Positions 22,725 through 59,421 of a DNA stretch of 64,000 nt are shown in pieces (positions within the stretch are counted from its first letter, which is position 1; every line of letters begins with the position of its first letter). The notes under the pieces are model-generated. The model did no database searches, had not been told where the DNA came from, and was given only the letters and a program-made list of their open reading frames with translations. This DNA comes from Gemmatimonadota bacterium (lineage in GTDB: Bacteria; Gemmatimonadota; Gemmatimonadetes; Gemmatimonadales; GWC2-71-9): positions 37,126 through 101,125 of the forward strand of contig JBBIUN010000006.1 of NCBI GenBank assembly GCA_037440225.1, in the 5' to 3' direction. The position numbers and the translations under genes are program-made.

Positions 22725-23579
22725 TCAGCGATGGATGACGTGACAGTTCTCGCATGCCGCGCCCGGATAGTGGGACGGGCTGAAGGTCCGGGGCAGCGGT
22801 CTTGCGCTCGAGGCTCGGGCCCAGGCCTCAGGTTCTGCAGCCGCGGCGGCGTTGTGGCAGCGGGCGCAGAGGAACGCCATCGCGGCATCCCGCAGGAGGA
22901 ATGCCTGCGGGGCACCGTGGAGCGCGTGGCAGTCGCCGCAGGAGGCGGCGCTATGCGCTTTCAATCCCGCCAGTTCCGGAGCGTGGCAGGATCCGCACCG
23001 GTCGAGCTGTTGGGCGGCCGAGACGACCTGCATGGTCGGGTCGTGAGGATCGTGACAGGCGGTGCACTCGATGGTGCCCGCCCGAGCCCAGGCTCCGGCT
23101 CCGGGAGCTTGCCAGGGGCGCGCTGCCGGAGCCAAGCGCCGCCCGGCGTGTGCGGCCCCTAGGGGGTGGTCGTCGGAGAGGTCGGGGCCGAGGTAGCGCC
23201 CGGAGCCCTGCGGCAGGCGGTCGGCATCCGGCTGGCGACGGCGCGTGGCCTCGTCGAAGTGACATCGGAGGCAGCTTTCGGTGACCGCTCCGGCGCCGGG
23301 GGCATCCACCGACAGCCAGGCGGTGGGCTGCCGTTCTCGTTCATCGGTTCGGAGGCTGTACTGGCCGGGCCGGCCCGGGTGGGATCGGTGGCAGGCGTTG
23401 CAGAACCCGGCGGGCGAGCCGCGCAGGACCGCGTGGCCGCCGCTGGGGCGCATCTCTTGGGCGGCGAGCCGGCCCGCTGTCGCCAACGCCGCGGCTGCCC
23501 ATGCCAGGCAGCGCAGCCGGGAACGCACCGCGGGGGAGGCGGTGCGCGGTGCCGTCGCGTTACGGGCGGGCTGCGGCAT
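22725..23579 (-). CDS. Heptaheme c-type cytochrome
   Basis: 284 aa with 7 CxxCH motifs: CNACH, CLRCH, CTACH, CGSCH, CGDCH, CARCH, CENCH. It has a hydrophobic signal-like N-terminus and the SDDHPL and CTACHDPH contexts also seen in the paired-CxxCH cytochromes of this locus. Confidence 0.85.
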   Translation of the reverse strand: MPQPARNATAPRTASPAVRSRLRCLAWAAAALATAGRLAAQEMRPSGGHAVLRGSPAGFCNACHRSHPGRPGQYSLRTDERERQPTAWLSVDAPGAGAVTESCLRCHFDEATRRRQPDADRLPQGSGRYLGPDLSDDHPLGAAHAGRRLAPAARPWQAPGAGAWARAGTIECTACHDPHDPTMQVVSAAQQLDRCGSCHAPELAGLKAHSAASCGDCHALHGAPQAFLLRDAAMAFLCARCHNAAAAAEPEAWARASSARPLPRTFSPSHYPGAACENCHVIHR

Positions 23580-24723
23580 CGGCCACGGGCGGTAGAGGCC
23601 CCACGAAGCCGTACACGGCGATCTTGCGTGGGCCGTATTGGTTGGTGACCCAGAGCAGATACTTGACCTCGAAGCCGGGCCGCGCGTACTGCCGGAAGTA
23701 GCTCACGTGGTCGTAGTCCACCACGACTTTGGCGGGCAGCACCATGTCCCCCGGCCCGTTGCCCGGCCCTCCGAAGAACATCAGGAGCCGTCCGTCGGGG
23801 CGAAACACCTGGACGTTCTCGAAGGCGGCATCAACCACATATACCAGGCCCTGGCGATCCACGGCCACGCCTTTGGGGCGCGTGAACGTACTCGGTCCCT
23901 GCCCCGGCCGGCCGATGGTTTGCACGTAGGCTCCCTCCGTGGTGTAGACCAGGACCCGCTGCTTGAGCATGTCGGATGCGTACACCCGGTGACCGGCCAC
24001 GTAGAGGTTGGCCGGAGCCGCCAGGCCGGCGGAGTCGGTGGCCGGGACGTCGGGGAAGTGGAACAGCGGCCGTCGAGTGGCCCGATCGTACACCCGCACC
24101 CCGAGTCCCGCTCCCAGGTGCGACACGTATATCCGCTCGCCGCTCACGAAGACGTCGGCGGGATTGCCGCCGTCTTCGTCGCCGAACGTCCCCTGGTAGC
24201 CGCCATCCGGGCCGTACACCACGACCTGCCTTCGGTGCAGGTCGGTCACATACAGGGTGCCGCGATCGTCCACGAAGCAGTTGGCCGGCCGCCGCAGACC
24301 GTGGGGATCTTTGGGCTGGAAGAAGGCGATCTCCCGGCGGGCCAGGTCCACCACGTCGAGACCTAGGATGTCCTGGTCGCAGACATAGGCCTTGCCGCGG
24401 TGCAGGGCCAGCCCGTAGGGCCGGGCGATGCCTTTGGCGCTGCGAGAGGGCCGCCCCACGATGCGGTCCAGCAGGGACGGTCCCTTGTCGGCAAGATCCA
24501 GCTCGGTGCTGAAGCTGGTCAGAAACTGGATGCGCGCCGTATCGGGCGGTGGTGGGTACACGGGGAGGTGCTCCGGTACCGGAGATCCGGCCCGCCCGCC
24601 GCAGGCCAGTGCCGCGACTGCCAGAGCGAAGGCTGCACCCAGCCGGGCACTGCGGAGGGCGGCCCTCGGGCTCTGGGGAGGAGCCTCGAGCGTTCTTGCC
24701 CGCGCCAGCCGCGTAACGTCCAT
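23560..24723 (-). CDS. NHL-repeat beta-propeller lipoprotein
   Basis: The track ORF starts at TTG 24750; ATG 24723 gives MDVTRLARAR.... Lipobox-like LAVAALAC. Repeated NHL-type units (RPANCFVDDRGTLYVTD, NPADVFVSGERIYVSH, RPKGVAVDRQGLVYVVD). 20-nt overlap with the heptaheme gene. Confidence 0.8.
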   Translation of the reverse strand: MDVTRLARARTLEAPPQSPRAALRSARLGAAFALAVAALACGGRAGSPVPEHLPVYPPPPDTARIQFLTSFSTELDLADKGPSLLDRIVGRPSRSAKGIARPYGLALHRGKAYVCDQDILGLDVVDLARREIAFFQPKDPHGLRRPANCFVDDRGTLYVTDLHRRQVVVYGPDGGYQGTFGDEDGGNPADVFVSGERIYVSHLGAGLGVRVYDRATRRPLFHFPDVPATDSAGLAAPANLYVAGHRVYASDMLKQRVLVYTTEGAYVQTIGRPGQGPSTFTRPKGVAVDRQGLVYVVDAAFENVQVFRPDGRLLMFFGGPGNGPGDMVLPAKVVVDYDHVSYFRQYARPGFEVKYLLWVTNQYGPRKIAVYGFVGPLPPVADAAARP

Positions 24724-24747
24724 GCGTCTTTGGCCTCTGGGACAAGG

Positions 24748-24775
24748 CAAGGGGCGGCCGCGCGGCCGCCCCTTG
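24748..24775 (-). terminator. 28-nt perfect GC-rich palindrome between the tetraheme and NHL genes (hairpin; attenuator or RNA-stability element?)
   Basis: The sequence caaggggcggccgcgcggccgccccttg equals its own reverse complement. It lies in the 81-nt intercistronic gap. No U-tract follows on the transcribed strand, so it is not a canonical intrinsic terminator. Confidence 0.35.
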
Positions 24776-24804
24776 GATCATCTCGAGCTAGGTCCGCCTT
24801 CCCA

Positions 24805-25440
24805 TCACTTGTTGTGGCACACCAAGCAGTTGGTGTCGTAGCCGGTGTAGGGCCGGAAGAACAACCCCGCCGTCCCCGGCTTGTGCGGGTCGTGGCAGGA
24901 ACCGCATTCCACCGTCTTGGTGCCTGTGCCGTACAGCCTCAGTCCGGCCGCAGCCACTTCGGTCGGCGCCCGCAGCCCGGTGTCCACCGTGTTGTCGTAG
25001 ACGATGCTCACCGGGTGATCATTGGACAGGTCCGTGCCGATCACGGCGTCCCCGGTCAGGTACTTGGGGATCGTGTCCTGGCCCGCGATCGTGCCGCCCA
25101 CCGCGTTGATCGCGGTCACCCCATCGTGGCAGCTCAGGCACGCCTTGGAGACGCCACTGGGCTGGCTGATGGTGTTGTCCAGGGTGCTGCTGCTGTACAA
25201 GGTGAAGGTTTGGGTGGTGAGGTCGTGGTTCCACAGTGGAGCGTCGGTGGACAGGGCGCTGTGGGCGGTGTGGCACGAGGAGCAGAGGCCGTACTTCTGG
25301 GTGACGGGATCCCAGAAGTTGTAGCTGCTCGACCCGTTGACGAAGTCGTGCTTGCTGCCGTCAATCTGGGCCCACACCCGCGGAGCCGCCAACGCCGCCA
25401 GTGCCAAGAGAGCGATCCAGCCCTTTGCGAGACGGTTCAT
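24805..25440 (-). CDS. Tetraheme c-type cytochrome (secreted)
   Basis: 211 aa with signal peptide MNRLAKGWIALLALAALAAPRVWAQ and 4 CxxCH motifs (CSSCH, CLSCH, CGSCH, CLVCH). It has SKHDF and SNDHPVS contexts. Confidence 0.85.
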   Translation of the reverse strand: MNRLAKGWIALLALAALAAPRVWAQIDGSKHDFVNGSSSYNFWDPVTQKYGLCSSCHTAHSALSTDAPLWNHDLTTQTFTLYSSSTLDNTISQPSGVSKACLSCHDGVTAINAVGGTIAGQDTIPKYLTGDAVIGTDLSNDHPVSIVYDNTVDTGLRAPTEVAAAGLRLYGTGTKTVECGSCHDPHKPGTAGLFFRPYTGYDTNCLVCHNK

Positions 25441-25531
25441 CTTCCTCCTCTCTCCTTTCGGTCGCGCTGCTGCAAGCAGCCGTACGGGGTCCCTGCGTAC
25501 TCCGAGCGAGGCCTAGTTTGCCATCCCCTGC

Positions 25532-25559
25532 TTGAAGGCGTGGTGAACCGTGGGTGAGA
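25532..25559. promoter_or_regulatory. Three hexamers phased at 11 bp (TTGAAG-n5-GTGAAC-n5-GTGAGA) in a divergent promoter region
   Basis: Read directly: hexamer starts at 25532, 25543 and 25554. The site is 92-119 nt upstream of the tetraheme start and 106-133 nt upstream of the hexaheme start. A related triple repeat lies at 31465-31492. Confidence 0.3.
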
Positions 25560-25664
25560 CGCAACTCACCGAGCGGCGACCTCTTGAGGCGCGCTTGAAT
25601 ACCGCTTCACGCCTGATTTAGCGATGAACCAAGCCGGAGGCAGTAGATTGGCGCACGGTGCGGT

Positions 25665-26570
25665 ATGCGGGCCAGACTCCGCGACATCCGGCTACTCTGC
25701 CAGGAGCATGCCAAGGGGGCTCTCCCCGCCGCCCTGGCGTTGCTTGCGCTCGGGGCCTGTGCCCGGGCCGCAGGCGTCCTGTTCGACCTTCCGCAGAACG
25801 CAGCACCGACCGCAGCGCCCGCGGCGCAGATTTCGCCCCCCGGCGTTCTGCGTGCGCCCGGCGCGCCGGATACCGCGAGGCCCCCTATTGAGGGGACCCT
25901 CGATCCGGACAGCACGCTCGCCCGCCTGCCCAGGCACGCCAACGGCGAGGTGGATTGGACCGCGGCGCTCGAGCAGGGGGTGATCCGGCCCCGCGACGCA
26001 GCTCCGGGGCTCGCACCGCCCGTCTATCTCGAGGGCTTCGGATACGACTTCGTTTTTCCGGGACCGGAACCCGATTTCGATGCCCGATTCCCGCACACCC
26101 GGCACAGCCCGTGGTTGGCCTGTTCCTCCTGCCACGGCGGCCTGATCCGCTACCGCGGCACTCCCATCACCATGGACCAAATTGCGAAGGGGGAATCGTG
26201 CGGCACCTGTCACGGCCCCGTAGCCTTCTCGCGAGAGGCCTGCGGGCGATGCCACCCCGGCATGCCGCCGGGCGAGTTCCGGGCCGAATTGAGCGACGAC
26301 ATCGTGCTGGCCCGGGCCGCCGACTCGGCGGGGGCCGCTGCCGCTTTCCCGCGCAGCCGGTTCGCGCACTGGGTGCACCGGATCCGGTACCGTTGCTCGG
26401 CGTGCCATGATGCCCTGTTTCCGATGCGCGCTGGCGCCGACACGCTGAAAATGGACGACCTCGCCGCGGGACGGAGCTGCGGGACCTGCCATAACGGGAC
26501 CTCTGCGTTCGGCCTGCTGGAGTGCACCCGGTGTCACGCGGCCTCCCGCCGCCAGGAGGGGGAGCGGTGA
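25665..26570 (+). CDS. Hexaheme c-type cytochrome lipoprotein (two c7-type triheme units)
   Basis: 301 aa with lipobox LALGAC and 6 CxxCH motifs arranged as two copies of F.H..H....CxxCH...M....G.sCGtCH....AF....CxxCH (CSSCH/CGTCH/CGRCH and CSACH/CGTCH/CTRCH). Confidence 0.85.
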   Translation: MRARLRDIRLLCQEHAKGALPAALALLALGACARAAGVLFDLPQNAAPTAAPAAQISPPGVLRAPGAPDTARPPIEGTLDPDSTLARLPRHANGEVDWTAALEQGVIRPRDAAPGLAPPVYLEGFGYDFVFPGPEPDFDARFPHTRHSPWLACSSCHGGLIRYRGTPITMDQIAKGESCGTCHGPVAFSREACGRCHPGMPPGEFRAELSDDIVLARAADSAGAAAAFPRSRFAHWVHRIRYRCSACHDALFPMRAGADTLKMDDLAAGRSCGTCHNGTSAFGLLECTRCHAASRRQEGER

Positions 26571-28483
26571 GGAGAGTGCTGGCGATCGCCGCGCTACTCG
26601 CGGCGGGACCTCGGGCCTTTCGGGCCCAGACGGTCTTCGTGTGGGATCGTTCGCGCAGCGAGGTGGGGGCCCGGGGGTCCGGCTCGAGCAGCGCGGAGGC
26701 CAGCCAGAACTCGGCACAGGGGTGGGTGAAGGTACGGGCTTATGGATCGCTTTTCAGCCCGGAGCTGTTGGCCTTCGGCATTGGGCTGCAGCCTGGCTTC
26801 ACCTGGACGCGCTATGCCTTCCCGCTGGGCGGGGGCGGGAGCGACGACCGGCTGCTGGGCACGGACGGGTACCTGGATCTCCTGCGCCACCGCGCGGTAT
26901 CCGGCTCCCTGCGCTGGCTTCGGCTCGCCCACGATCAAAACGGCCGGGGCGGCTACCTCGGCGACGCCACCGGCCGAAGCGCCACGCTCGAGTCCTCGCT
27001 TCGCTACGACAATCGCCTCATGCCGCTCCGATTCGAATACCGGGACGAGAGCTGGAGCCAGCAGTCGGTATTGGGAGGCGACGCGCAGCGCACGACGTCC
27101 TCCATCGAGAGCGTGCGTCTCTCGGGCCGGAACCGCAAGACCGGCTTCCAGCTCGAGCGGCGGGTCACCCGCGAGCCGGAGCCCCTTACCTACCGGCAGG
27201 CCGCGATCGAGAACCGGCAGAGTTGGGGCAAGGGCAGTCAATTCGAAGTCGTGGCCAGCGCGTTGGACCAGCGCAGCGTGCGGCTCGGGACGGCCTCGAA
27301 CACGCAGTGGGGGATGGGGCTCCACCTCCAGCACCTGCGCTCCGTCTGGAGCGACTGGTCGGTGGGCCGTTGGGGGAGCCGTGCGGGAGACCAGCGAACG
27401 GCCCGCACCGTAGCCAGTGGCGGAATCGGGGCCCAAATCTTGACCAACGTCACCGGTGGCATCGCCGGGAGCGTGGTCAGCACCCGCTACGATGGCTTGC
27501 AGGAAGTGAGCCGCCGCATCGAGTCGCGCCTGGCGGCGCGGGTGCGGTTGCCAGCCGGGGCCTGGCTCGGCGCATCGGCCTCCGCAGGGTACGAGCACCT
27601 CGCGATCTCTCGGGGCGAGGCCGCCTGGGTCACGGTGGTGGGCGAATCCCATCGGCCGGATGCCAGCGGGAGCTTCATCCTGAACCGGCCCGAGGTGGAT
27701 CCTGGCAGCATCTTGGTCACCGGGCCGGATGGCAGCGTGCTGGTCCGAGGATTGGACTACGACATCACCGAAGCCGCCGGCATCATACAGGTGGTTCTGC
27801 TCCCGGGAGCCCGGGTTGCGCCCGGGGCGCCGGTTGTCGTCAGCTACCGATTTCGGGTGGCCGCCACCGCGACGGCGCCGTCGTTCGTCGGCTCGTACAG
27901 CGCCGACTTGCAGATTCGCGGGCTCCGCGTCTACCACCGCGGCTTGATGCGCCACCCGCAGACCGAGCAAGCCGCGGATCCGGCCCTAGCCGGCGTGCCC
28001 GAGGTGGACTGGGTGACCACCGGCTCCCAGCTCGTCATCGCGAGCCGGCCGGTTCGCGCCACGGTGCAGGCCGAGCGGAACCGTCGGACCAATGCCGGAG
28101 TCCACGCTACGGTTTCTTCGGTGGGCGCGACCGTGGGCGCCTGGCCCCACCGCCGGGTCCGCGCATCCTTGCAAGGGGGATATCAACTCACCGAGGCGCC
28201 AGCCGGCGCGTACCGCCTCGCGACCGCCCGCTCCGCGGTGGAATGGCTACCAAGCGGGGCCTTGGTGCTCGAAGCAGCCTCGAGCGTCTGGCGCGCGCTC
28301 GAGCGAGACAGTGTGCGGCGGCGGGAGCTGGGGTTGGCCGGACGGCTCACCTGGCAGCCCGGGCTGCTGCGGGTCGTGGTGTCGTACCAAACCCGCGACT
28401 GGCGCGAGACGATCTTCATCGGGCCGGCGCCCCGCGCGGTGGGCAGCAGCCGCTGGGACATCGCCCTCATCCGTACGTTCTGA
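26567..28483 (+). CDS. Predicted outer-membrane beta-barrel protein (638 aa)
   Basis: GTG 26567 overlaps the hexaheme stop (GTGA) and is preceded by AGGAGGGGGAG. Signal peptide VRRVLAIAALLAAGPRAFRAQ. Many alternating-polarity strands rich in Y/W/R/G. The C-terminus is ...WDIALIRTF (terminal aromatic). Confidence 0.65.
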   Translation: MRRVLAIAALLAAGPRAFRAQTVFVWDRSRSEVGARGSGSSSAEASQNSAQGWVKVRAYGSLFSPELLAFGIGLQPGFTWTRYAFPLGGGGSDDRLLGTDGYLDLLRHRAVSGSLRWLRLAHDQNGRGGYLGDATGRSATLESSLRYDNRLMPLRFEYRDESWSQQSVLGGDAQRTTSSIESVRLSGRNRKTGFQLERRVTREPEPLTYRQAAIENRQSWGKGSQFEVVASALDQRSVRLGTASNTQWGMGLHLQHLRSVWSDWSVGRWGSRAGDQRTARTVASGGIGAQILTNVTGGIAGSVVSTRYDGLQEVSRRIESRLAARVRLPAGAWLGASASAGYEHLAISRGEAAWVTVVGESHRPDASGSFILNRPEVDPGSILVTGPDGSVLVRGLDYDITEAAGIIQVVLLPGARVAPGAPVVVSYRFRVAATATAPSFVGSYSADLQIRGLRVYHRGLMRHPQTEQAADPALAGVPEVDWVTTGSQLVIASRPVRATVQAERNRRTNAGVHATVSSVGATVGAWPHRRVRASLQGGYQLTEAPAGAYRLATARSAVEWLPSGALVLEAASSVWRALERDSVRRRELGLAGRLTWQPGLLRVVVSYQTRDWRETIFIGPAPRAVGSSRWDIALIRTF

Positions 28484-28636
28484 CACGTTCCGGCACCGGG
28501 CGGAGGCCCGCGGCGGCTGCCGCGACAGGGACTCCACTCATCTCTCATTGCAGTGCAGCCCGGCGCGAGCCACCGGGCACCGCGCCCGCCGGCGCTTCCG
28601 ACGAAACCCGTGGCTGGGGCGTTTTGACCAATCCGA

Positions 28637-30475
28637 CTAGAACCTGGTTCCGTGGTAATGGCAGGAGAAGCAGTTGGTCTTGGTGCCTCCCATGCTGCCG
28701 GTGTGGCAGGTATTGCACCACTTCCACCCGTTGACGGCGGTGTCTTTCACGTTGTTGTCCGTGATGGCGTAACTCCCACCTCCGTCGGGCGGGATGGGGA
28801 CGGTGCCGCTCTTGGAGTACACGGTATCCACCGCATGGAACAGGTTGCCCGAGACGTGCGCACGGTGGCAGGCCTCGCAGTTCATGAGGTCGCCCGCGCC
28901 CCATCCGTAGCCGCTCTTGAGCGTAGGGCTCCCGGTGGCCGCTCCCATGGCGTCGGTCGCGTGGGTGCTGCGCACGTTGGTTAGAGCCGTACTCGGCGGG
29001 GTGACCGTGGCGGGATAACTCCCGTCGTGACAATCCAGGCAGAACTCGGAGCGGAAGCTGACCCCCGCCATGACCTGTCCGGTTCCCGGCACGCGGCCGT
29101 CAGCGGGATCGGGATCGGTCTTCCAGGGCTGTGCGGCAGTGGCGCGGTGCGGGTCGTGACAGTCGGTGCACTCGATCTTAGCCCCGCTCGTGGTTTGGGC
29201 GGCGTACTGCACGTCGTGGCGGTCGTTCAGCCGCGTGTTGGCGGACGCTCCGACCGGCGCCGTGACCCACCGGACGGAGGTATTGAATTGGGCCGCCACG
29301 TTGGTCGCCGCCGGCCCGTTGCTGTCGTGGCAGTTGAAGCAGAACCCTTCTTCCTGCTCTGCGTTGGCGGGCGGGGTGGGCGCCAGGTCGGGGGGAGCCA
29401 GCAGCTTGCGTTTGAGCGAACCGTGCCCTGTGGCGTGGCAGCCGAAGGTGCCATCTCCGAAACAGCTGCGGTTGCCGGTCGCGTGCGCCGAAGTCGTCCA
29501 GGCCGCCGCGTCGATGGGGGGTCGGGTCACGCCGTCGCCGAATGGCACCAGGTTCCCGTCCGCCCCGTTGGCATCGTGACAGGCGAGGCAAAAGGCGGTG
29601 AGCTTGGCCGCTTGGGTGGAATCGGTGGCGGGGTTGCCAGCCAGCACGATGACCGAGTCGAGGTTCCCCGGGTAGTCCACGTTCCAGAGTCGCACCGAGC
29701 CTTGCTGGTGCCGGCTTTGGTCGTGGCACACCTGGCAGCGGGCCGCGGTCAGCGAATCGGGCGTGGGGACCTGGAGGTGATGGCTCGACCGGCTGAACTC
29801 GCCTACCACGGCGCGCCGCCCGCCCGGCGGGATGCCGTCGCCGTTGTCCTGGACCGTACTGTGGCAGTCGGTGCAGGTCCCGCTGGGCACGAAGCCGGCG
29901 TCGTGCCGGTGGCAGGTCTGGGTGCAGGTGCGGCCTGCCTCGTGCGTGTGATCGCCCTCGCTGGTATTCCGGTGATAGGCCGTTTGGGTGTGGCAGACCT
30001 CGCAGACGCCGTCGTAGACGCTGTCGCCGTCGGCGAAGGAGTGGGCCGTCGGTTGGCCGGCGTCCAGCCCCCGGCTTTCGAAGCGGACGCTCCGGCTCCC
30101 GCTGTGCGGGGTGACGATCACGGCGCGCACCAAGGCGAGATTGGTGAGGCCGGCGCTGTTGCGTTCGTAGTCGTGCGGGCTATGGCAGTCGGTGCACGTG
30201 GCCAGTTTGCCGCCGGCTTGGGTTTTGTGGACTTCGCGCACCGGGGCACCACCGCTGGGACTGTGACAGGTTTGGCAGAGCACTTCGCGCACCGCTTCCT
30301 TGGTCAAGTTCAGCCCCGGCGCCGTATGGACCTGGTGGCAGTTGGAGCAGGGGCTGTGCTGGCTGAAGAGCAGCAACGCCGGCAGGGCTCCGGCAGCCCC
30401 GGGCACGTGCGCGGCGGCTGCGGCGGCAGCGAGCGCTACCACGAGCCCCACCCCGAGGCGCACCGGCCGGGTCAT
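28637..30475 (-). CDS. Large multiheme c-type cytochrome (13 CxxCH plus 2 atypical motifs)
   Basis: Lies inside track ORF 28637..31048. ATG 30475 overlaps the upstream NHL stop (ATGA) and gives 612 aa with signal MTRPVRLGVGLVVALAAAAAAAH. Canonical CxxCH motifs: CSNCH, CQTCH, CTDCH, CEVCH, CTDCH, CQVCH, CLACH, CFNCH, CTDCH, CLDCH, CEACH, CNTCH, CFSCH. Atypical motifs: CTQTCH and CFGDGTFGCH. Confidence 0.85.
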   Translation of the reverse strand: MTRPVRLGVGLVVALAAAAAAAHVPGAAGALPALLLFSQHSPCSNCHQVHTAPGLNLTKEAVREVLCQTCHSPSGGAPVREVHKTQAGGKLATCTDCHSPHDYERNSAGLTNLALVRAVIVTPHSGSRSVRFESRGLDAGQPTAHSFADGDSVYDGVCEVCHTQTAYHRNTSEGDHTHEAGRTCTQTCHRHDAGFVPSGTCTDCHSTVQDNGDGIPPGGRRAVVGEFSRSSHHLQVPTPDSLTAARCQVCHDQSRHQQGSVRLWNVDYPGNLDSVIVLAGNPATDSTQAAKLTAFCLACHDANGADGNLVPFGDGVTRPPIDAAAWTTSAHATGNRSCFGDGTFGCHATGHGSLKRKLLAPPDLAPTPPANAEQEEGFCFNCHDSNGPAATNVAAQFNTSVRWVTAPVGASANTRLNDRHDVQYAAQTTSGAKIECTDCHDPHRATAAQPWKTDPDPADGRVPGTGQVMAGVSFRSEFCLDCHDGSYPATVTPPSTALTNVRSTHATDAMGAATGSPTLKSGYGWGAGDLMNCEACHRAHVSGNLFHAVDTVYSKSGTVPIPPDGGGSYAITDNNVKDTAVNGWKWCNTCHTGSMGGTKTNCFSCHYHGTRF

Positions 30476-31437
30476 GGCTTGCCTCCCAGCAGGTAACGCT
30501 CGATGCGCGCGGTCTTGTAGCTGGTGACCAAGGCTTCGCCTCCCGGGGTCACGACCACGTCGAGGGGCAGGAGGAGCTGCCCCGGCCCGTCGCCGAAACT
30601 GCCCAGGGTCCCGACCCGCGCCAGCGTGCTGCGGTCGAACGCCAGCACCTGACCCAAGAGGCCATCCACCAGATACACCCGTCCCTGGGCGTCCAGCGCG
30701 ACACCCTGGGGGCGCGAGAAGCCGCCGGTGCAACCCAGCATCCCGCAACTCCCCTTGCCGGAAACCGCCGCCACCAGGTGACCCTGGTAATCGAGGATCT
30801 TGAGGCTCGCGTACTCGCCGGCGGCGAGATCGCCGTAGTCGCTCACCAGCACCTGCTGCTGCGCCGAGTCCACTGCAAGGCCCGTGGGATGCCGCAACCC
30901 ACCGAGGGAGCCTCGCGGGCGGCCCTGGTAATCGAATACCTGAACGCTGCCTCCCTTGCCGTCCGCCACAAAAACCAGCTCGCGGGAGGCGTCCACATCC
31001 AGGTCCACCGGATCGCGCAGCAGCCCGTGGCCAAATTCGAAGCGCCACCGCCCGCTGGGGCTGAACACGTCCACCACGCTCCGGCTGGCGTTGCCCACGA
31101 AGATGTGGCCACCGGCCGCCGCGAGTCCCACCGCATGTCCCCGGACCGGGAGCGCACCCACCGGCGCCAGGGAACTCGGGTCCAACCTCACCACCGCCGC
31201 TCCGAAGTAATCGCTGACGAGCAGACTGCCGTCGGGCGTGCGCGCCAAGCGCACGGGGGAGCTGAGTCGGGAGGCAGCACGACTCCAGGCGAGGCGAAAG
31301 CCGAGGTCCGCCGCGGTGGGCGACTCGCTCCCGGCCGATCCCAGCCGTTCATCGCACCCCCAGGTGAGCCCGGCGGCAGCCAAAGCCAGGGCCGCGAGCC
31401 AGCGGATGGGGGACGGACAGCGCGGCGATAGCCTCAT
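30472..31437 (-). CDS. NHL-repeat beta-propeller lipoprotein
   Basis: 321 aa with lipobox LTWGC and NHL-like units (SPVRLARTPDGSLLVSD, DPVDLDVDASRELVFVAD, HPTGLAVDSAQQQVLVSD, RPQGVALDAQGRVYLVD). Confidence 0.8.
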   Translation of the reverse strand: MRLSPRCPSPIRWLAALALAAAGLTWGCDERLGSAGSESPTAADLGFRLAWSRAASRLSSPVRLARTPDGSLLVSDYFGAAVVRLDPSSLAPVGALPVRGHAVGLAAAGGHIFVGNASRSVVDVFSPSGRWRFEFGHGLLRDPVDLDVDASRELVFVADGKGGSVQVFDYQGRPRGSLGGLRHPTGLAVDSAQQQVLVSDYGDLAAGEYASLKILDYQGHLVAAVSGKGSCGMLGCTGGFSRPQGVALDAQGRVYLVDGLLGQVLAFDRSTLARVGTLGSFGDGPGQLLLPLDVVVTPGGEALVTSYKTARIERYLLGGKP

Positions 31438-31464
31438 CCAGAGCGCAAGATGCGCCAGCCTGCG

Positions 31465-31492
31465 GTGAACCCTCAGTGAAGTTGCGGTGAAC
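31465..31492. promoter_or_regulatory. Three direct hexamers phased at 11 bp (GTGAAC-n5-GTGAAG-n5-GTGAAC), candidate response-regulator operator
   Basis: Read directly: hexamer starts at 31465, 31476 and 31487, and TGCGGTGAAC is repeated exactly 22 bp apart. The site is 28-55 nt upstream of the NHL start and 165-192 nt upstream of the response regulator start. Confidence 0.35.
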
Positions 31493-31656
31493 GAGCCTTG
31501 GCGCTCTCGAGGAACGGGCGGGGCTTGCCGCTGCTTCGATCCGGAAGCGCCTTCGGGTCTCTGGCGGATCCAAAGGGAGCGCCCTAGGCTTGAGAGAGCC
31601 AGGGGGACCTGGCGACTCGGGATCGTCAGGAACGCCCTCGGGGTAGCAAGGTCGCG

Positions 31657-32325
31657 ATGCGCATCCTCATCGTCGAAGACGACCCGCAGCTACGCGAGAT
31701 CGTCGCCACCGCCCTCCGGGAGGAGGGCTACGAAGTGGTCACGGCCTCCTCGGTTCGCGAGGGGCGGGAGCGGGCCGTGTTCGGGGCGTACGGGCTCTTC
31801 ATCTTGGACATCATGCTTCCCGACGGGAGCGGCGTCGAGCTGTGCGCCGCGCTGCGCGATGCGGGAATCGCCACGCCGGTCCTGTTGCTCACCGCCCGGA
31901 ACACGGTGGACGACAAGGTCGCGGGGCTGGATGCCGGAGCGGACGACTATCTGCCGAAGCCGTTTGCGCTGCGCGAGCTGTCCGCCCGGGTCCGGGCGCT
32001 CCTGCGCCGTCCGCCCTCGGTGCAGCCCTCGGTCGCCCGCATTGCCGACCTCGAGGTGGACCTCCGCAGCCGCCGCGTGCGGCGTGCCGGCCGGGACATC
32101 GCGCTGACCGCCAAGGAGTTCGCCCTGCTCGAGTGCTTCGTGCTGCACCGGGATGCCGTCCTCGACCGGGCCACGATCACCGCCCACGTGTGGGACGAGA
32201 ACCACGATCCCTTCACCAATACGCTCGAGGTCCTGGTCCGGCGGCTGCGGCAGAAGATTGACGACGACTTTGCCCCCAAGCTGATCCACACCGTGCGCGG
32301 CGCCGGATACCGGTTCGGCCCCTGA
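31657..32325 (+). CDS. OmpR/PhoB-family response regulator
   Basis: 222 aa with a receiver domain (MRILIVEDD..., LFILDIMLPDGSG, ...DDYLPKPF) and a winged-helix C-terminus (...LTAKEFALLECF...IHTVRGAGYRFG). Confidence 0.93.
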   Translation: MRILIVEDDPQLREIVATALREEGYEVVTASSVREGRERAVFGAYGLFILDIMLPDGSGVELCAALRDAGIATPVLLLTARNTVDDKVAGLDAGADDYLPKPFALRELSARVRALLRRPPSVQPSVARIADLEVDLRSRRVRRAGRDIALTAKEFALLECFVLHRDAVLDRATITAHVWDENHDPFTNTLEVLVRRLRQKIDDDFAPKLIHTVRGAGYRFGP

Positions 32326-33644
32326 TGGACCCCCTCAAGCGCCTCCGCCTGCGGCTGACCGCCTGGTACGTGGGGACGTTCACGGTGGTGTTGGTGTTGC
32401 TCGGCTCGGGACTGTTCATCGCGCTGTCGGGCCAACTGTCCGGGGACCTGGACCTGCGGCTCGAAACGGCGGTGGCGGCGGTGCGCCGCACGATGGACGT
32501 CCGGGCGGCCTTCGGCACCGCACCGGAGCAGGCCCTGCGCGAGGCCGTGGCGGAAAACGCGGGGCCGGAGCGCTTGCTCTATCTCTTCGATGGAGCGGGC
32601 AAACCCCTCATCGCACCCAACCCCGTGGATCCGCGCATCGCGGCGGCAGCGGTGGACGCGGTCAACGAAGAGGATGCCGTGAGCGACGAATTCCGCACCT
32701 CCAGCCGCCAGCGCTGGAGGCTCTACGCGGAGCCGATTCTCTTGGGCGACGGCCAGGGCTTCGCCCTGGTGGCATTGGCCGACGCCACCGGATTCCAACG
32801 CCAGTTCAGCCGCCTGGTCCAGACGTTCATCGCCGCCGCGCTCCTCGCCTTGCTCCCGGTGGGCTTGGGCGGCTATCAGATCGCGCGCGTGTCGGCAGCG
32901 AGCGTGGAGCGGGCCATGGAGCGGTTGCGGACGCTCACGGCAGACGCGGCGCACGAGCTGCGGACGCCGGTATCCGTGATCCGGGGTCACGCCGAGCTGG
33001 CGATCCAACGGGAGCGCGATGCCGCATCCTACAGCGCCGCCCTGCAACAGATCGCCGCGGAAGCCCAACGCCTGGGCCAGCTCCTCGACAACCTCCTGAT
33101 GCTCGCCCGCGCCGAGGCCGGCGAGCGGCCCAGGCAACGCCGCCGGCTGTTCCTCGACGACCTTGCCGATCAGGCCGTGACCAGCGCCGCGGTGCTCGGC
33201 ACCGGGCGCGGCGTCCGCGTGTCCCTGGGACGGTTCGAGGAAACCCCCGTCGTCGCCGACCCGGACCTGTTGAGGCAGATGCTCATGATTCTGTTGGACA
33301 ACGGCATCAAGTTCACGCCCAGCGGCGGATCGGTCCAGGTGCACGTGTTCACCGAGCAGCATCATCCGGTGCTCGTGGTCGAGGACACCGGCATCGGGAT
33401 CGCACCCGAACACCTGCCGCACGTCTTCCAGCGATTCTACCGGGGAGATCGCAGCCGAAGCGGCGTGCCCGGAGCCGGGCTGGGATTGGCCATCGCCCGG
33501 TGGATTGCCGATCAGCACGACGCCACGATCAGCATCCACTCGGCGCTCGATCACGGTACCCGCGTCGAGGTCCGATTCCCCCCTCCCCCCGCACCGCCAT
33601 CCGAACAGCCACCAGCAGCCACAGCGCCAAGCAGCCAGGCCTGA
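32325..33644 (+). CDS. Sensor histidine kinase
   Basis: 439 aa with two N-terminal TM segments, the H-box DAAHELRTPVSVIRG, and N/G boxes (LLDNGIKFTP, VEDTGIGI, GAGLGLAI). The start overlaps the regulator stop (TGATG). Confidence 0.9.
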   Translation: MDPLKRLRLRLTAWYVGTFTVVLVLLGSGLFIALSGQLSGDLDLRLETAVAAVRRTMDVRAAFGTAPEQALREAVAENAGPERLLYLFDGAGKPLIAPNPVDPRIAAAAVDAVNEEDAVSDEFRTSSRQRWRLYAEPILLGDGQGFALVALADATGFQRQFSRLVQTFIAAALLALLPVGLGGYQIARVSAASVERAMERLRTLTADAAHELRTPVSVIRGHAELAIQRERDAASYSAALQQIAAEAQRLGQLLDNLLMLARAEAGERPRQRRRLFLDDLADQAVTSAAVLGTGRGVRVSLGRFEETPVVADPDLLRQMLMILLDNGIKFTPSGGSVQVHVFTEQHHPVLVVEDTGIGIAPEHLPHVFQRFYRGDRSRSGVPGAGLGLAIARWIADQHDATISIHSALDHGTRVEVRFPPPPAPPSEQPPAATAPSSQA

Positions 33645-50088: not shown

Positions 50089-51363
50089 ATGTATGCACTT
50101 GCTGCGATCGGACTTACGGCCCTGGTATCCCTGGCCGCCCCCACGGAAGGAGCGGCCGGCGGCGTTCCCGCCTGGGTGCGGGAGTATGCCAATGCCTACG
50201 CCAGCCGGGTCTCGAGCGCCGCGAGCCACGTGGAAGCGGCGGCGCCCATCCCGGCGTGGGCCCAGAAGTACAACCTGGACTGCTCGGCCTGTCACTGGCC
50301 GGCCGCACCCCGGCTCAACGCCATGGGGATCCGCTTCCGGTGGGCAGGCTATCGCATGCCGGATGAGATCGGCCAGAAGGTGGACGTCAAGGACGTGGGC
50401 CACTACGTGGCGATGCGGGGCCGGATGCAGTACGTCTATGACAAGACCCAGGGCCAGCCGGCCACCAGCGATTTCAATTGGAACGATGCCACCTTGTTCT
50501 TCTCGGGACCGTTCGGGAAGCACTATAGCGCATTCTTCGAGCTGGAACGCGAGGCCGAGGATGCGCTGGGACTGGTGGCGCAGATCGGCGGCCTGTGGGG
50601 CAATCAGGAGTCCTACGGCGGGGTGCGGACCGGCCTGATGCACTGGCTGCTGCGGGACGGCGTGGCGGGCTTCGACCGGCCCACCGGCATCCGCACGCCT
50701 TTGCCGCTGGCCAACCCGCTGACTTCCACCATCCCGTTCCGGTTCTCGAAGGACCAGCTCGGCGCGGAGGGGTTTTTCGTGACCGGGCGCAACCGGGTTT
50801 CGCTCGAGGTGCTGAACGGGATCAACACCGCGGGTGCGGGTGACGAGAAGGATCCCGATACCAACCGCGACTTCGTGGTGACGAACCAGTTCCTGTTCGA
50901 TAACAAGGGTTCGGGGATCACCGCGGTGGGCTATTATGGCCAACTGGTGGGCCTGGCGCCGTCGGATCCCGGCCTCAACTCGCACTTCTGGCGGCTGGGC
51001 GCGAGTGCCAACTGGATCGTCAAGCAGCTGGAGTTGATGGGCGGCGTGGTGTATGGCAAGGACACCGACCTGCCCAGGTCGGTCTCCCCGGCGGATCGCA
51101 CCGGACTGGGGTATTGGGCCTATGGCGGCTACTCCATTCCCGTGCAGCAGTCCCTCTGGACGCTGTATGGTCGCTACGAGTTCCTGGACCCCAACACCGA
51201 TGTCGCCGGTGACGGCAGCAAGCGCTTCGTGTTCGGCACGGTGCTGCCCGTGAACCTACCGGAGTATCTGCGGCTGGCGGTCGAATATGCCCACGATCTC
51301 AAGCAGGCGGCCGCCGCGCCCAAGCGCAACGGCCTGACGGCGGAGGTGATGCTGAACTTCTGA
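50089..51363 (+). CDS. Cyc2-like fused monoheme cytochrome-porin (outer-membrane barrel with N-terminal CxxCH)
   Basis: 424 aa with a signal peptide and a single CSACH in the context PIPAWAQKYNLDCSACHW. About 340 aa of alternating-polarity strands follow, ending ...GLTAEVMLNF. The RBS GGGAGGAG lies upstream of the ATG. Confidence 0.65.
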   Translation: MYALAAIGLTALVSLAAPTEGAAGGVPAWVREYANAYASRVSSAASHVEAAAPIPAWAQKYNLDCSACHWPAAPRLNAMGIRFRWAGYRMPDEIGQKVDVKDVGHYVAMRGRMQYVYDKTQGQPATSDFNWNDATLFFSGPFGKHYSAFFELEREAEDALGLVAQIGGLWGNQESYGGVRTGLMHWLLRDGVAGFDRPTGIRTPLPLANPLTSTIPFRFSKDQLGAEGFFVTGRNRVSLEVLNGINTAGAGDEKDPDTNRDFVVTNQFLFDNKGSGITAVGYYGQLVGLAPSDPGLNSHFWRLGASANWIVKQLELMGGVVYGKDTDLPRSVSPADRTGLGYWAYGGYSIPVQQSLWTLYGRYEFLDPNTDVAGDGSKRFVFGTVLPVNLPEYLRLAVEYAHDLKQAAAAPKRNGLTAEVMLNF

Positions 51364-51480
51364 TCGCCGGGCGGCCGGGCGAACTCAGGCCACGATGGCC
51401 CCTGGGTCGAGGCCCCCGTGGGCCGGCCTGGGTTCGCCCCGGGCGATCCCCCATCCCGTGCAGCATCGGAGCGAAGCCAG

Positions 51481-52215
51481 ATGAAGGTTCCGGAACAGGT
51501 ACCCCGGCTGAGCGCGGTGTTCGCCGTGGCGATAGCCGGATTGGTGGCGGCCCGATCGCTTCTCCTGCCTGAGACCTTCGGCAAGCTCGGTCATTACCGC
51601 GCCGCGGCGATTGACTCCGTCGCGGCCCGCCCTACGAAGTACGCGGGCCAGCAAGCCTGCGCTGCTTGCCATGACGACGTGGCCACGCGCCGGGCGGCCG
51701 GCAATCATCGGGGGGTCTCCTGCGAAGTGTGCCACGGGCCGGAGCAGGCTCACGTGGATGCGCCGCTCGAGGTCAAGCCCCCGGCGCCGCGGGACCGCGG
51801 CTTCTGCCCGTTGTGCCATGCGTACAATCCCTCGCGGCCCACCGGCTTTCCCCAGATTGACCCGGTGGCGCACAACCCGCTCAAGCCGTGCATCACCTGC
51901 CACGATCCCCATGCGCCGGTCCCTCCGGTGGTGCCGGGCGAGTGCAGCGCCTGCCACGGGCAGATCGCCCGCCAGAAGGCGCTCTCGCACCATGCCAACC
52001 TGCCGTGCACCACGTGCCATCAGGCGCCGCAGCAGCATAAGGTGGCGCCGCGCACGGTGCGGCCGACCAAGCCCACGGAACGGAGTTTCTGCGGCCGGTG
52101 CCACGCCGAGGGAAGCAGCGGGCCTCCGGAAGCGCCGCGCATCAACCTGGCCGAGCACAATCCCCGATACCTGTGCTGGCAGTGCCACTACCCTCACTAC
52201 CCAGAGGCTCGATGA
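51481..52215 (+). CDS. Membrane-anchored octaheme c-type cytochrome
   Basis: Lies inside track ORF 51418..52215; ATG 51481 gives 244 aa. It has an N-terminal TM helix (LSAVFAVAIAGLVAARSLLL) and 8 CxxCH motifs: CAACH, CEVCH, CPLCH, CITCH, CSACH, CTTCH, CGRCH, CWQCH. Confidence 0.85.
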   Translation: MKVPEQVPRLSAVFAVAIAGLVAARSLLLPETFGKLGHYRAAAIDSVAARPTKYAGQQACAACHDDVATRRAAGNHRGVSCEVCHGPEQAHVDAPLEVKPPAPRDRGFCPLCHAYNPSRPTGFPQIDPVAHNPLKPCITCHDPHAPVPPVVPGECSACHGQIARQKALSHHANLPCTTCHQAPQQHKVAPRTVRPTKPTERSFCGRCHAEGSSGPPEAPRINLAEHNPRYLCWQCHYPHYPEAR

Positions 52216-53024
52216 TGGCGGACGAAGCACCGCAACCGGACGGCGCTTCACGCGGGCTGCCGGTGGTGGATCGGCGGCAGTTCGTCCAAGAAGCGCTCAA
52301 AGCCTGCGCGGCAGGGTGCCCGGTGATCTTGGCAGTGTTCGCGCTGCCGGCTGCGACGGCTCAGGAGCCGGGCCGCGGCGGCTACGACCCGAGCGAGCAC
52401 TGGTATGGGATGGGGATTGACATCCAGAAGTGCATCGGCTGCGGCCGCTGTGTGGCCGCCTGCAAGGCGGAAAACGAGGTGCCGCCGGATGCCCACCATT
52501 TCAATACCTGGGTGGAACGTTATGTGATCCACGATGACGGCGAGGTCACCGTGGACAGCCCCAACGGCGGTTTTGATGGGTTTCCTCCTCCCGAGAGCGA
52601 GGCGGGCATTCGGCGGACCTTCTTCGTGCCCAAGCTGTGCAACCACTGCGCCAACCCGCCGTGCGTGCAGGTTTGTCCCGTGGGTGCCACGTTCAGTACG
52701 CCCGACGGCGTGGTGCTGGTGGACGAAGCCTACTGTATCGGGTGCCGGTACTGCATTCAGGCCTGTCCCTACGGGGCGCGCTGGTTCCATCCTACCAAGC
52801 ACGTGGCCGCCAAGTGCACCTTCTGCTACCACCGGCTGGTCAAGGGGCTGTTGCCCGCGTGCGTGGAGGCCTGTCCCACAGGGGCGCGGGTCTTCGGCGA
52901 AGTGGCCCAGCGGGCCACCCCGCTGGCCCGCTTCACGCGGATGAACGACATCCAGGTGTTGAAGCCCCATCTCAACACCAAGCCCAAGGTGTACTACGCC
53001 AATCTCGACGTCGAGGTGAGGTAG
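52212..53024 (+). CDS. Tat-exported 4Fe-4S ferredoxin subunit, NrfC/PsrB/DmsB type
   Basis: ATG 52212 overlaps the octaheme stop (ATGA). It has the twin-arginine motif DRRQFV and cluster motifs CIGCGRCVAACKAEN, CNHCANPPCVQVCP, CIGCRYCIQACP and CTFCYHRL...CVEACP. Confidence 0.9.
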   Translation: MMADEAPQPDGASRGLPVVDRRQFVQEALKACAAGCPVILAVFALPAATAQEPGRGGYDPSEHWYGMGIDIQKCIGCGRCVAACKAENEVPPDAHHFNTWVERYVIHDDGEVTVDSPNGGFDGFPPPESEAGIRRTFFVPKLCNHCANPPCVQVCPVGATFSTPDGVVLVDEAYCIGCRYCIQACPYGARWFHPTKHVAAKCTFCYHRLVKGLLPACVEACPTGARVFGEVAQRATPLARFTRMNDIQVLKPHLNTKPKVYYANLDVEVR

Positions 53025-53025
53025 G

Positions 53026-54216
53026 GTGCAAGGCTATATCTACCCCAACGAGTACGAGCTGCAGTGGAGCCTCTTGATCGTGTTGTACCCGTACATCACC
53101 GGTCTGGTGGCTGGCGCGTTCATCCTGGCTTCGCTGGAGCGGGTCTTCAACGTGAAGGAGGTCCAGCCCACCTACCGGCTGGCCTTGCTGACTGCGCTGG
53201 CCTTCCTGCTGGTGGCCCCGCTGCCCCTGCAGGCCCACCTGGGCCACCCCGAGCGCTCCTACGAGATCTTCCTCACGCCCAACCGCAAATCGGCTATGGC
53301 GATGTTCGGGTTCGTGTACGCGTGGTACCTGGCCGTGGTGTTGTTGCTGGAGATTTGGTTCGAGTATCGCCAGGACATGATCACGTGGGCCAGCCGGGCT
53401 TCCGGCCCTCGCCGCTGGCTCTACCGGGTGCTGACCCTGGGCTCCCGAGATCTCTCTCCGGCAGCGCTCCAGTTCGACGACGCGGCCGGGCGCTGGATCA
53501 CCATCATCGGCATCCCGTCGGCGTTCCTGCTGCACGGGTACGTGGGGTTCATCTTCGGATCGGTCAAGGCGAACCCCTGGTGGAGCAGCGTGCTGATGCC
53601 GGTGGTCTTCCTGTTCTCGGCCATCGTGTCGGGCATCGCCCTGGTGCTGATCCTCTATCTGCTCACCAGCCTGTTTCGCTCCCGTCCGGTGGACATGCGC
53701 TGCCTGGACAAGCTGGCCAGCTTCCTGTTCTACGCCATGATCGTGGACGTCTCGCTGGAGATGCTGGACTTCCTGCACCGGCTCTACGAGTCGGAAGAGT
53801 CCATCACCATTCTCTCGCAGATGATCGAGAGCCGGCTGTTCATCAGCCTGATCGTCTTGCAGCTCGTGCTCGGCACGCTCGTTCCCCTAGGCTTCCTCGC
53901 GGTGTTCTCACCGGCGCTGCACCGGGGTCTCGCCCGGGGGTCGGACGAGCTTCGGCGGCTGGTCTATCTGGTTGCGGCCGTGCTGGTGGAAATCGGCATC
54001 TTCAGCATCCGCTGGAACGTGGTGATCGGAGGCCAGTTGTTCTCCAAGAGCCTGCGCGGGCTCACGGTGTACAAGGTGGAGCTGTTGGGCCTCGAGGGCT
54101 TGGCCATGACCATCGCGCTCTTGGCGCTGCCGTTCGTGATCCTCTGGGTCTTGGCCAAGGTGCTGCCGCCGTGGCCGGAGCTGCGCACGGCCCAAGCCGC
54201 CCCCGCGGAGGGGTAG
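53026..54216 (+). CDS. NrfD/PsrC-family polytopic quinone-interacting membrane subunit
   Basis: 396 aa with a GTG start 1 nt after the NrfC-like stop. The N-terminus ...WSLLIVLYPYITGLVAGAFILASL and about 8-10 TM helices are typical of the NrfD family. Confidence 0.85.
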   Translation: MQGYIYPNEYELQWSLLIVLYPYITGLVAGAFILASLERVFNVKEVQPTYRLALLTALAFLLVAPLPLQAHLGHPERSYEIFLTPNRKSAMAMFGFVYAWYLAVVLLLEIWFEYRQDMITWASRASGPRRWLYRVLTLGSRDLSPAALQFDDAAGRWITIIGIPSAFLLHGYVGFIFGSVKANPWWSSVLMPVVFLFSAIVSGIALVLILYLLTSLFRSRPVDMRCLDKLASFLFYAMIVDVSLEMLDFLHRLYESEESITILSQMIESRLFISLIVLQLVLGTLVPLGFLAVFSPALHRGLARGSDELRRLVYLVAAVLVEIGIFSIRWNVVIGGQLFSKSLRGLTVYKVELLGLEGLAMTIALLALPFVILWVLAKVLPPWPELRTAQAAPAEG

Positions 54217-58567: not shown

Positions 58568-58582
58568 ACCGCGTCTTTCTCC

Positions 58583-59350: not shown

Positions 59351-59421
59351 AGCACGCCTCGCCTCGTTTGGCCGTTCATCACGATGCATCTCGTCACCTT
59401 CATCACGCGTCGAGAGCCTCC

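Follow-up and report, generated by a model that had tools for sequence, protein, structure and literature searches.

What kind of electron-transfer machinery is encoded by a run of cytochrome genes in a bacterium of the Gemmatimonadota, and has this combination of genes been met before? The run occupies positions 22725-33644 of a 64,000-nucleotide (nt) window of a Gemmatimonadota contig, the whole stretch of DNA that was analysed. Positions are numbered from the start of this window, whose G+C content is ~69%. Gemmatimonadota, a ubiquitous phylum of soil and sediment, is to our knowledge noted neither for extracellular electron transfer nor for cytochrome nanowires. A preliminary description of the DNA had proposed a porin-cytochrome conduit of unrecognised composition, centred on a c7-type lipoprotein and a barrel of 638 amino acids (aa). 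The coupling of barrel and c7 cytochrome holds, but the composition matches the published Uet (undecaheme electron transfer) cluster and shares parts with the omcE nanowire cluster. We think that the locus is probably a Uet-type or OmcE-type extracellular electron-transfer module of Gemmatimonadota that spans the outer membrane. Papers of 2022 and 2025 had already recognised its composition, of which the window holds a lineage-specific version. New here are the fused c7 lipoprotein, the 7- and 13-heme partners, the Gemmatimonadota host, and a barrel family distinct from that of Geobacter.

A tetraheme cytochrome of the locus, noted earlier simply as secreted, is present as described, but its identity had been missed. 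By homology it is an OmcE-family protein. It matches 7TFS_A, the OmcE filament of Geobacter sulfurreducens, over its full length (E 3.7e-26), and 9YUQ, OmcE of Desulfuromonas soudanensis, likewise over its full length (E 3e-17). Both entries are solved OmcE filaments, the latter a bundled nanowire (bioRxiv 10.1101/2025.10.22.684050). We aligned 46 tetrahemes, consisting of 43 barrel-linked proteins, the window protein and the two solved OmcE subunits. The four CxxCH motifs are invariant in 46/46, as are three further histidines, H31, H142 and H186 in window numbering, and H60 is kept in 45/46. This is the pattern given in the OmcE papers for bis-His ligation of the hemes, including the ligand that crosses the subunit interface. 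Wherever the flanking DNA is long enough, essentially every barrel locus also has an OmcE homolog. The window tetraheme is a candidate nanowire subunit and the likely equivalent of UetA, the tetraheme of the Uet cluster.

A second group of proteins also matches OmcE. Downstream of the barrel and an NHL gene, seven loci from other genomes (L054, L062, L063, L068, L078, L085 and L091) encode 11-heme proteins of ~610-690 aa that resemble the undecaheme UetJ. Their matches to OmcE (E 1e-31 to 1e-34) suggest that they appear to carry OmcE-like units and are not an unrelated cytochrome family. OmcE-like sequence is present in the 11-heme proteins of the proteobacterial loci.

The partner of the barrel is a hexaheme lipoprotein with two c7-type triheme domains (TIGR04257 of NCBIfam, E 6e-36), which also matches the c7-domain dodecaheme PDB 3OV0 (E 7e-43). 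Its TGA stop codon (26568-26570) overlaps the GTG start codon of the barrel gene (26567-26569) within a single GTGA (26567-26570), and an AGGAGG Shine-Dalgarno sequence lies ~8-13 nt upstream of that start. Among relatives with enough upstream DNA to judge, 47 loci in all, a c7 gene lies immediately upstream of the barrel gene in 45 by script, and in the remaining two by reading of the gene tables. Because the adjacency recurs in 45/47 loci, and in two more by inspection, the association goes far beyond chance. It holds across phyla, at barrel identities of 22-36%, and the two genes repeatedly overlap by 4 bp or lie close together. The proposal that the tandem c7 lipoprotein is the partner of the barrel is therefore borne out, and the cytochrome-barrel adjacency, whose absence from related genomes had been held out as a sign against it, is present in them. 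The lipobox cysteine and the VLFDLP that follows it are conserved in 34/45 c7 homologs, which is nearly all of those with an intact N-terminus; the consensus after the cysteine is V(F/L)(F/L)D(L/I)P.

The form of the c7 partner differs between lineages. In Gemmatimonadota it is a single fused 6-heme gene, and in Proteobacteria it is two or three separate 3-heme genes. In Candidatus Schekmanbacteria (L036) the barrel, NHL and 11-heme genes are followed by four separate triheme c7 genes downstream, the only locus seen in which c7 genes do not precede the barrel gene.

Open reading frame (ORF) calls, Pfam and NCBIfam scans and CxxCH counts place nine genes in four transcription units at 22725-33644. 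All gene features of the preliminary description (the hexaheme gene, the GTGA overlap, the barrel ending in ...IRTF, the 13-heme gene and the divergent operon) are found where it had put them. The features are as follows.

22725-23579, minus strand: heptaheme c-type cytochrome, 284 aa, with 7 CxxCH and a Sec signal peptide
23560-24750, minus strand: NHL1, an NHL/DUF5128 six-bladed beta-propeller (Pfam DUF5128 E 3e-12, NHL E 2e-7)
24805-25440, minus strand: OmcE-family tetraheme cytochrome, 211 aa, with 4 CxxCH and a Sec signal peptide (VWA/Q)
25441-25664, no strand: intergenic region from which the tetraheme operon and the c7-barrel operon diverge, placed by the gene coordinates
25665-26570, plus strand: tandem c7-type hexaheme lipoprotein, 301 aa, with 6 CxxCH and the lipobox LALGAC
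26567-28483, plus strand: outer-membrane beta-barrel, 638 aa, with a signal peptide and the C-terminal beta-signal ...IRTF
27224-27238, plus strand: WGKGS motif, barrel residues 220-224, in the turn that joins strands 10 and 11 in the modelled strand map
27611-27868, plus strand: inserted beta-rich domain of ~85 aa, barrel residues ~349-434, between strands 17 and 18
28637-30475, minus strand: 13-heme cytochrome, 612 aa, with 13 CxxCH and a Sec signal, convergent with the barrel gene
30472-31437, minus strand: NHL2, the second NHL beta-propeller, 321 aa (Pfam NHL E 4e-18)
31657-32325, plus strand: OmpR-type response regulator (Pfam Response_reg/Trans_reg_C)
32325-33644, plus strand: histidine kinase (Pfam HisKA/HATPase_c)

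The minus-strand unit runs in the order tetraheme, NHL1, heptaheme and is divergent from the plus-strand unit of hexaheme and barrel. A simple scan of the intergenic region between the two found no sigma-70-like promoter. The NHL2 gene lies upstream of the 13-heme gene, and its stop codon overlaps the 13-heme start codon as ATGA.

The 638-aa protein has no Pfam, NCBIfam or PDB sequence match, and we turned to structure prediction with AlphaFold2 (AF2). Given a 100-sequence alignment, the model has a mean predicted local distance difference test score (pLDDT) of 92.3 and a predicted template modelling score (pTM) of 0.80. It consists of 28 long antiparallel strands linked by 3-5-residue connections on both faces, with the inserted domain as the sole exception. 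An alignment of only 4 sequences gave an overall barrel pLDDT of 41 and an unusable model. The inserted domain reaches a pLDDT of 81-92 with 100 sequences and still 75-82 with four. We confidently predict that the protein is a 28-strand outer-membrane beta-barrel, in agreement with the earlier view that it is a barrel and not a member of an unrelated outer-membrane protein family.

The most-conserved barrel positions cluster at two sites. One comprises WGKGS, in which W220 and G221 are invariant among 100 family members and S224 is kept in 99%, together with a conserved HLQH ~30 residues further on, whose H256 is found in 96% of the 100. By the usual topology of such barrels, WGKGS and HLQH would be neighbouring periplasmic turns. 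The other site is the inserted domain, where E360, H362, D397, Y398, R416, G420 and Y427 are conserved at >=88-100% in the family. The C-terminal phenylalanine is conserved as well. The family comprises 861 clusters (50% identity) at E<=1e-3 in an exhaustive profile search, of which 102 reach E<=1e-30; full-length members are nearly all 630-650 aa. A word-index homolog search returned 3 barrel relatives, with the single sequence and with the 100-sequence profile alike. Foldseek searches of the model against the PDB returned generic large barrels, TonB-dependent receptors and LptD among them, at template modelling (TM) scores of 0.23-0.40, and MtrB (6R2Q_B) at rank 47 with TM ~0.32.

How far does this neighbourhood extend? 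Two close relatives, with 95% and 78% barrel identity, retain the entire gene order. In a 32%-identical relative the C-terminus of the c7 protein overlaps the barrel gene by 4 bp. In four more relatives, whose barrels are 22-37% identical, the barrel gene has as neighbours a c7 gene and the gene of an OmcE-like tetraheme (a multiheme cytochrome of ~210-235 aa); an NHL propeller is encoded nearby, within a few kb in L007. We also searched a set of genomes, one for each GTDB species, for a DNA pattern derived from the WGKGS...HLQH motifs and confirmed matches with the hidden Markov model (HMM) of the family; the pattern detects about half of the family and is biased toward relatives of the query. 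Within that scope, the 52 HMM-confirmed matches comprise 38 from Gemmatimonadota, 11 from Alphaproteobacteria (Kiloniellaceae, Rhodospirillales), 2 from Gammaproteobacteria, one of them labelled Acidiferrobacterales, and 1 from Candidatus Schekmanbacteria.

In many Gemmatimonadota (L011, L012, L029, L050 and L084) the tetraheme, NHL1, double c7, barrel and heptaheme genes run in a single direction, followed in many by a convergent pair of NHL2 and 14-heme genes. Because of this, the divergent layout of the window looks like a rearranged single operon. The proteobacterial loci L062 and L085 have the order NHL, tetraheme, c7, c7, barrel, NHL, 11-heme, with a divergent peptidyl-prolyl isomerase (PPIase) gene nearby. 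The core set of OmcE-like tetraheme, NHL1, c7 and barrel is conserved across Gemmatimonadota and Alpha- and Gammaproteobacteria, and is rearranged in Candidatus Schekmanbacteria. The earlier remark that NHL propellers and multiheme cytochromes belong with the barrel is upheld by these loci, in which they travel together.

Some relatives carry additional genes. In L005 (579-10504) and L006, a relative with 37% barrel identity, the barrel gene is followed by genes for a tetratricopeptide repeat (TPR) protein, several family 4 glycosyltransferases (GT4) and a sulfotransferase. This arrangement is reminiscent of a glycosylation extension known from Geobacter-type omcE clusters.

The remaining genes of the locus are less uniform. 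NHL1, with the lipobox VAALAC, is probably a lipoprotein and probably starts at the ATG at 24723; a lipobox-like site is found in 30/48 of its homologs, and in 9/12 homologs of NHL2. The heptaheme cytochrome matches Paired_CXXCH_1 (E 2e-15) and the DmsE family TIGR03508 (E 7e-14, at 52 bits against a cut-off of 192). It has a weak match to the MtrA chain 6R2Q_A (E 8e-4), and its C-terminal part may be called MtrA/DmsE-like, a weak resemblance. In most Gemmatimonadota relatives its gene immediately follows the barrel gene. The 13-heme protein has no relative in the PDB, but 14-heme homologs, with NHL2 upstream, adjoin the barrel in the Gemmatimonadota loci L015, L025, L035, L046, L055 and L077. 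The two regulatory genes had been taken for a dedicated two-component system. They are indeed adjacent, but dedication is not established: the adjacency is kept only in L001, L003 and L063 (two close relatives and one Gemmatimonas locus), and other relatives have different regulators, or none within the 8-kb stretches compared. A link of the OmpR-type regulator and histidine kinase to the cluster is uncertain.

How might these parts work together? Sec would export all of the cytochromes, with heme attachment following in the periplasm. A lipid anchor would hold the c7 hexaheme at the outer membrane, and translational coupling would keep its synthesis in a fixed ratio to that of the barrel; the hexaheme may occupy or dock to the wide barrel as a trans-membrane heme wire, as MtrA does in MtrB. 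The OmcE-like tetraheme would cross or sit on the barrel and polymerise into a surface filament by inter-subunit His-heme ligation, to be charged or discharged by the c7 wire. The OmcE homology of the tetraheme moves the likely role of the barrel away from an MtrB-like sleeve and toward filament anchoring or export. The NHL propeller lipoproteins could be assembly or scaffold factors, and the MtrA-like heptaheme and the 13-heme protein may lengthen the path on the periplasmic or outer side. Whether a filament forms, how the complex is arranged and which way electrons run are all matters of inference here.

Candidate quinone-linked partners in the inner membrane are encoded 20-35 kb further along the window. 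Three plus-strand genes (51418-54216) form an octaheme-FeS-NrfD set: the first (51418-52215) encodes an octaheme cytochrome, the second (52098-53024) a 4Fe-4S dicluster protein and the third (53026-54216) a membrane protein of the NrfD family. This is a module that interacts with quinones and could connect periplasmic cytochromes to the inner membrane. Directly upstream of it, at 50089-51363 on the plus strand, lies a gene whose 424-aa product has a signal peptide, one CxxCH close to its N-terminus (LDCSACHW) and the C-terminus ...VMLNF. The product has no Pfam or NCBIfam match; it resembles a Cyc2-type fusion of a monoheme cytochrome with a porin and is a candidate Fe(II) oxidase. On the minus strand, 55227-57247 encodes a 540-aa petB-like cytochrome b, then an overlapping tetraheme c-type cytochrome (55227-55823), which together are a second candidate quinol-cytochrome c oxidoreductase. 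The cytochrome-rich minus-strand region 57578-63919 contains a DOMON-domain protein (57578-58567), overlapping ORFs with 5, 5 and 9 CxxCH whose gene calls are ambiguous (58583-61078), a 507-aa protein with a signal peptide and without a family assignment (60964-62487), and a CbcL-like protein in which a multiheme c domain is fused to an FdnI/b561-type cytochrome b (62513-63919), the third of the candidate quinone-linked partners.

Several points weigh against a filament-bearing module of this kind. Homology to OmcE is not proof of polymerisation, and OmcE-like tetrahemes are widespread while the loops of the bundling interface are not conserved (bioRxiv 10.1101/2025.10.22.684050). The MtrA-like heptaheme could be an alternative occupant of the barrel. 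The barrel family is known from sequence and models, and the roles assigned to the Uet and omcE clusters are themselves predictions. Because the barrels are not detectably related, as described below, functional transfer from the Geobacter omcE system rests on analogy. Finally, deletion of the DFE cytochrome genes, located in NHL-containing clusters of Desulfovibrio ferrophilus, left Fe(III) oxide reduction unimpaired.

The reading that survives best beside ours concerns direction. The locus may be an electron-uptake module, in which oxidation of Fe(II), minerals or a cathode feeds an aerobic or denitrifying chain, as was proposed for Uet in Candidatus Tenderia electrophaga and in Gallionella and Leptothrix, where the cluster has also been reported. 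Because multiheme conduits are reversible, the locus does not fix the direction of electrons. The closest published parts list, that of Uet, comes from an electroautotroph and from iron oxidisers, the Cyc2-like candidate at 50089-51363 lies in the same window, and Cyc2 homologs were reported in Gemmatimonadota metagenome-assembled genomes. Geobacter OmcE, in contrast, has a role in Fe(III) oxide reduction. We regard uptake as a serious contender, albeit a somewhat doubtful one.

It is also conceivable that there is no filament and that the locus is a classical porin-cytochrome conduit, the type named in the preliminary description. Inside the barrel would then be the c7 hexaheme or the heptaheme, from which electrons would pass to the tetraheme or the 13-heme protein as a monomeric outer cytochrome, as in MtrCAB and OmaB-OmbB-OmcB. 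In its favour are the translational coupling of the barrel with its multiheme partners, the MtrA/DmsE-like region of the heptaheme and the place of MtrB among the Foldseek matches (TM ~0.32). However, the tetraheme retains every feature of the filament-forming OmcE subunits, the 28-strand barrel is wider than the 26-strand MtrB, Pfam gives no MtrB_PioB match, and the Mtr and Ext models of NCBIfam all stay below their cut-offs. We think that this arrangement is unlikely.

Less probable still is that the barrel takes no part in electron transfer itself and is mainly a secretion usher for folded holo-cytochromes, with the inserted domain as its gate. The idea draws on the literature analogy to chaperone-usher systems and the channel-like OscEFG, on the one conserved beta-rich domain that interrupts a 28-strand barrel without other loops, and on the TPR and glycosyltransferase genes that follow the barrel in one distant relative, as they do in glycosylated-OmcE clusters. 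An usher, however, has no obvious need for invariant coupling to a lipid-anchored c7 cytochrome. Usher plugs sit in a periplasmic turn, whereas the inserted domain here maps to a predicted extracellular loop. We find this role quite improbable.

A chance neighbourhood, in which the 638-aa protein is an unrelated outer-membrane protein for polysaccharide export or lipopolysaccharide transport, could appeal to the generic large barrels returned by Foldseek and to the missing family annotation, but it is effectively refuted by synteny, since the adjacency is found in all informative loci across phyla at 22-36% identity and comes with translational coupling, and we give it almost no credence.

If the locus is a Uet-type or OmcE-type module, as we favour, it bears on an acknowledged open question, namely how nanowires are exported, anchored in the outer membrane and linked to periplasmic carriers. 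The barrel family offers a compact candidate answer: a lipoprotein cytochrome and a barrel encoded together beside an OmcE-like subunit. We tentatively suggest, as a minority possibility, that the pair of c7 lipoprotein and 28-strand barrel is a distinct and widespread socket, unrelated to the Geobacter omcE barrel, that anchors OmcE-type filaments and wires them to the periplasm, and that it is common in Gemmatimonadota. The few near-invariant motifs of the barrel could serve as targets for mutation, and the family can be aligned and modelled. OmcE/Uet-type hardware is extended to many Gemmatimonadota (38/52 matches in the family-biased motif scan), which suggests that electron exchange with minerals or electrodes may be an overlooked trait of the phylum. 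The use of at least two barrel families, between which no sequence relationship was detected, bears on how often OmcE-like systems arose.

How does the locus compare with known systems? The osc (OmcS-companion) cluster of G. sulfurreducens resembles it in that a filament cytochrome is encoded with secretion and folding or morphology factors (as summarised in PMC13194489), and OscEFG of that cluster were called channel-like (bioRxiv 10.1101/2025.10.22.684050). The osc cytochrome is the hexaheme OmcS, of a different family from the window tetraheme. Shen et al. 2025 reportedly describe OscD as propeller-like and OscH as containing a prolyl isomerase. Multiheme cytochromes interleaved with NHL propellers also occur in DFE_0448-0451 and DFE_0461-0465 of D. 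ferrophilus IS5 (PMC5815863, PMC9769857). Compared by gene content, those clusters are without an apparent porin, whereas the window locus is centred on a conserved barrel.

With MtrCAB, MtoAB and PioAB the locus shares its logic: the gene of a wide outer-membrane barrel is coupled to that of a multiheme cytochrome, and an outer cytochrome comes in addition. The weak MtrA/DmsE-like region of the heptaheme is a further point of likeness. The locus differs from all three in having 28 strands rather than 26, no decaheme and a c7 lipoprotein as partner. Membership of the MtrB/PioB family was rejected (no MtrB_PioB Pfam match, TIGR03508 under its cut-off, TM ~0.32 to MtrB). Membership of the Ext conduits was also rejected, as the NCBIfam ExtN and ExtO models matched only at E ~2e-3, far below their cut-offs; no search was aimed at Oma/Omb/Omc.

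In the minimal omcE nanowire cluster of Desulfuromonadia (Geobacter, Desulfuromonas), OmcE is encoded with multiheme cytochromes, with two lipoproteins that are beta-propellers and with a large barrel "putatively functioning as a secretion or anchor"; five phyla were reported to have OmcE homologs near porin genes, and Gemmatimonadota is not listed among them (bioRxiv 10.1101/2025.10.22.684050). For a direct comparison we used metagenome contigs encoding close OmcE relatives, and scanned one cluster, L088, whose tetraheme is 78% identical to OmcE. Its genes are purE, ResB, CcsB, 9-heme, 8-heme, NHL, OmcE, a 746-aa protein, a family 2 glycosyltransferase (GT2), TPR and GT2, exactly the published layout. 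The window shares with the omcE cluster an OmcE-family tetraheme with all heme ligands kept, extra multiheme cytochromes, a large barrel gene and a beta-propeller lipoprotein (NHL1 against the L088 NHL protein, E 6e-30), and one more distant relative (L005) also shares TPR and glycosyltransferase genes after the barrel. The 746-aa putative barrel downstream of omcE (L088 10178-12418; also in L087, L089 and L090) forms its own family without a Pfam match. Between it and the window barrel family there was no HMM match at E<=10 and no phmmer match, and hhalign gave a probability of 1.7-2.1%. Homology was undetectable, and the identification of the window barrel with the Geobacter-type barrel was rejected. 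OmcE-like clusters appear to use at least two barrel families without a detectable relationship. The partner cytochromes differ as well, those of L088 being 8- and 9-heme paired-CXXCH proteins, not c7 lipoproteins. The heptaheme has weak similarity to the L088 9-heme protein (E 5.5e-8), and no counterpart of the c7 hexaheme lies in the part of L088 that begins with the 9-heme gene and ends with the barrel; further upstream, beyond resB/ccsB, an ORF of 124 aa with 3 CxxCH matches the hexaheme weakly (E 1.6e-6). Because the L088 barrel shows no detectable relationship and its partner cytochromes are not c7, we group the window with the Uet-type arrangement, which it resembles.

The Uet cluster, uetABCDEFGHIJ of Candidatus Tenderia electrophaga and Tenderiales, encodes the tetraheme UetA, the PPIase UetB, the 28-strand barrel UetC, the c7 trihemes UetD, UetE and UetG, the cupredoxin UetF, the NHL proteins UetH and UetI and the undecaheme UetJ (bioRxiv 10.1101/2022.05.06.490989; PMC10734462; PMC13386937). 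Both it and the omcE cluster type are defined bioinformatically only. A Pfam scan found no PPIase or cupredoxin domain in any of the nine genes at 22725-33644. Such genes occur in some relatives, a PPIase in L085 and a SoxE/cupredoxin-like protein in L010 (757-1299; GCA_041166445.1), where it lies inside the barrel-family cluster and recalls Tenderia UetF. The window also departs from Uet in that its two c7 units are fused in one hexaheme lipoprotein, its host is a member of the Gemmatimonadota, and it has 7-heme and 13-heme proteins but no OmcE-like undecaheme UetJ; the 11-heme OmcE-like proteins of other loci match the window tetraheme and not the 13-heme protein. Like Uet, it has a tetraheme, a barrel of about 28 strands, c7 triheme domains, two NHL proteins and a large multiheme cytochrome, the likeness of the barrels being one of strand count, 28 in the AF2 model and 28 predicted for UetC, compared by description. 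Searches toward UetC that started from a gammaproteobacterial member of the barrel family returned only hypothetical proteins of gammaproteobacterial metagenome-assembled genomes. The gene set of the proteobacterial relatives L062 and L085 is nearly identical to the Uet list.

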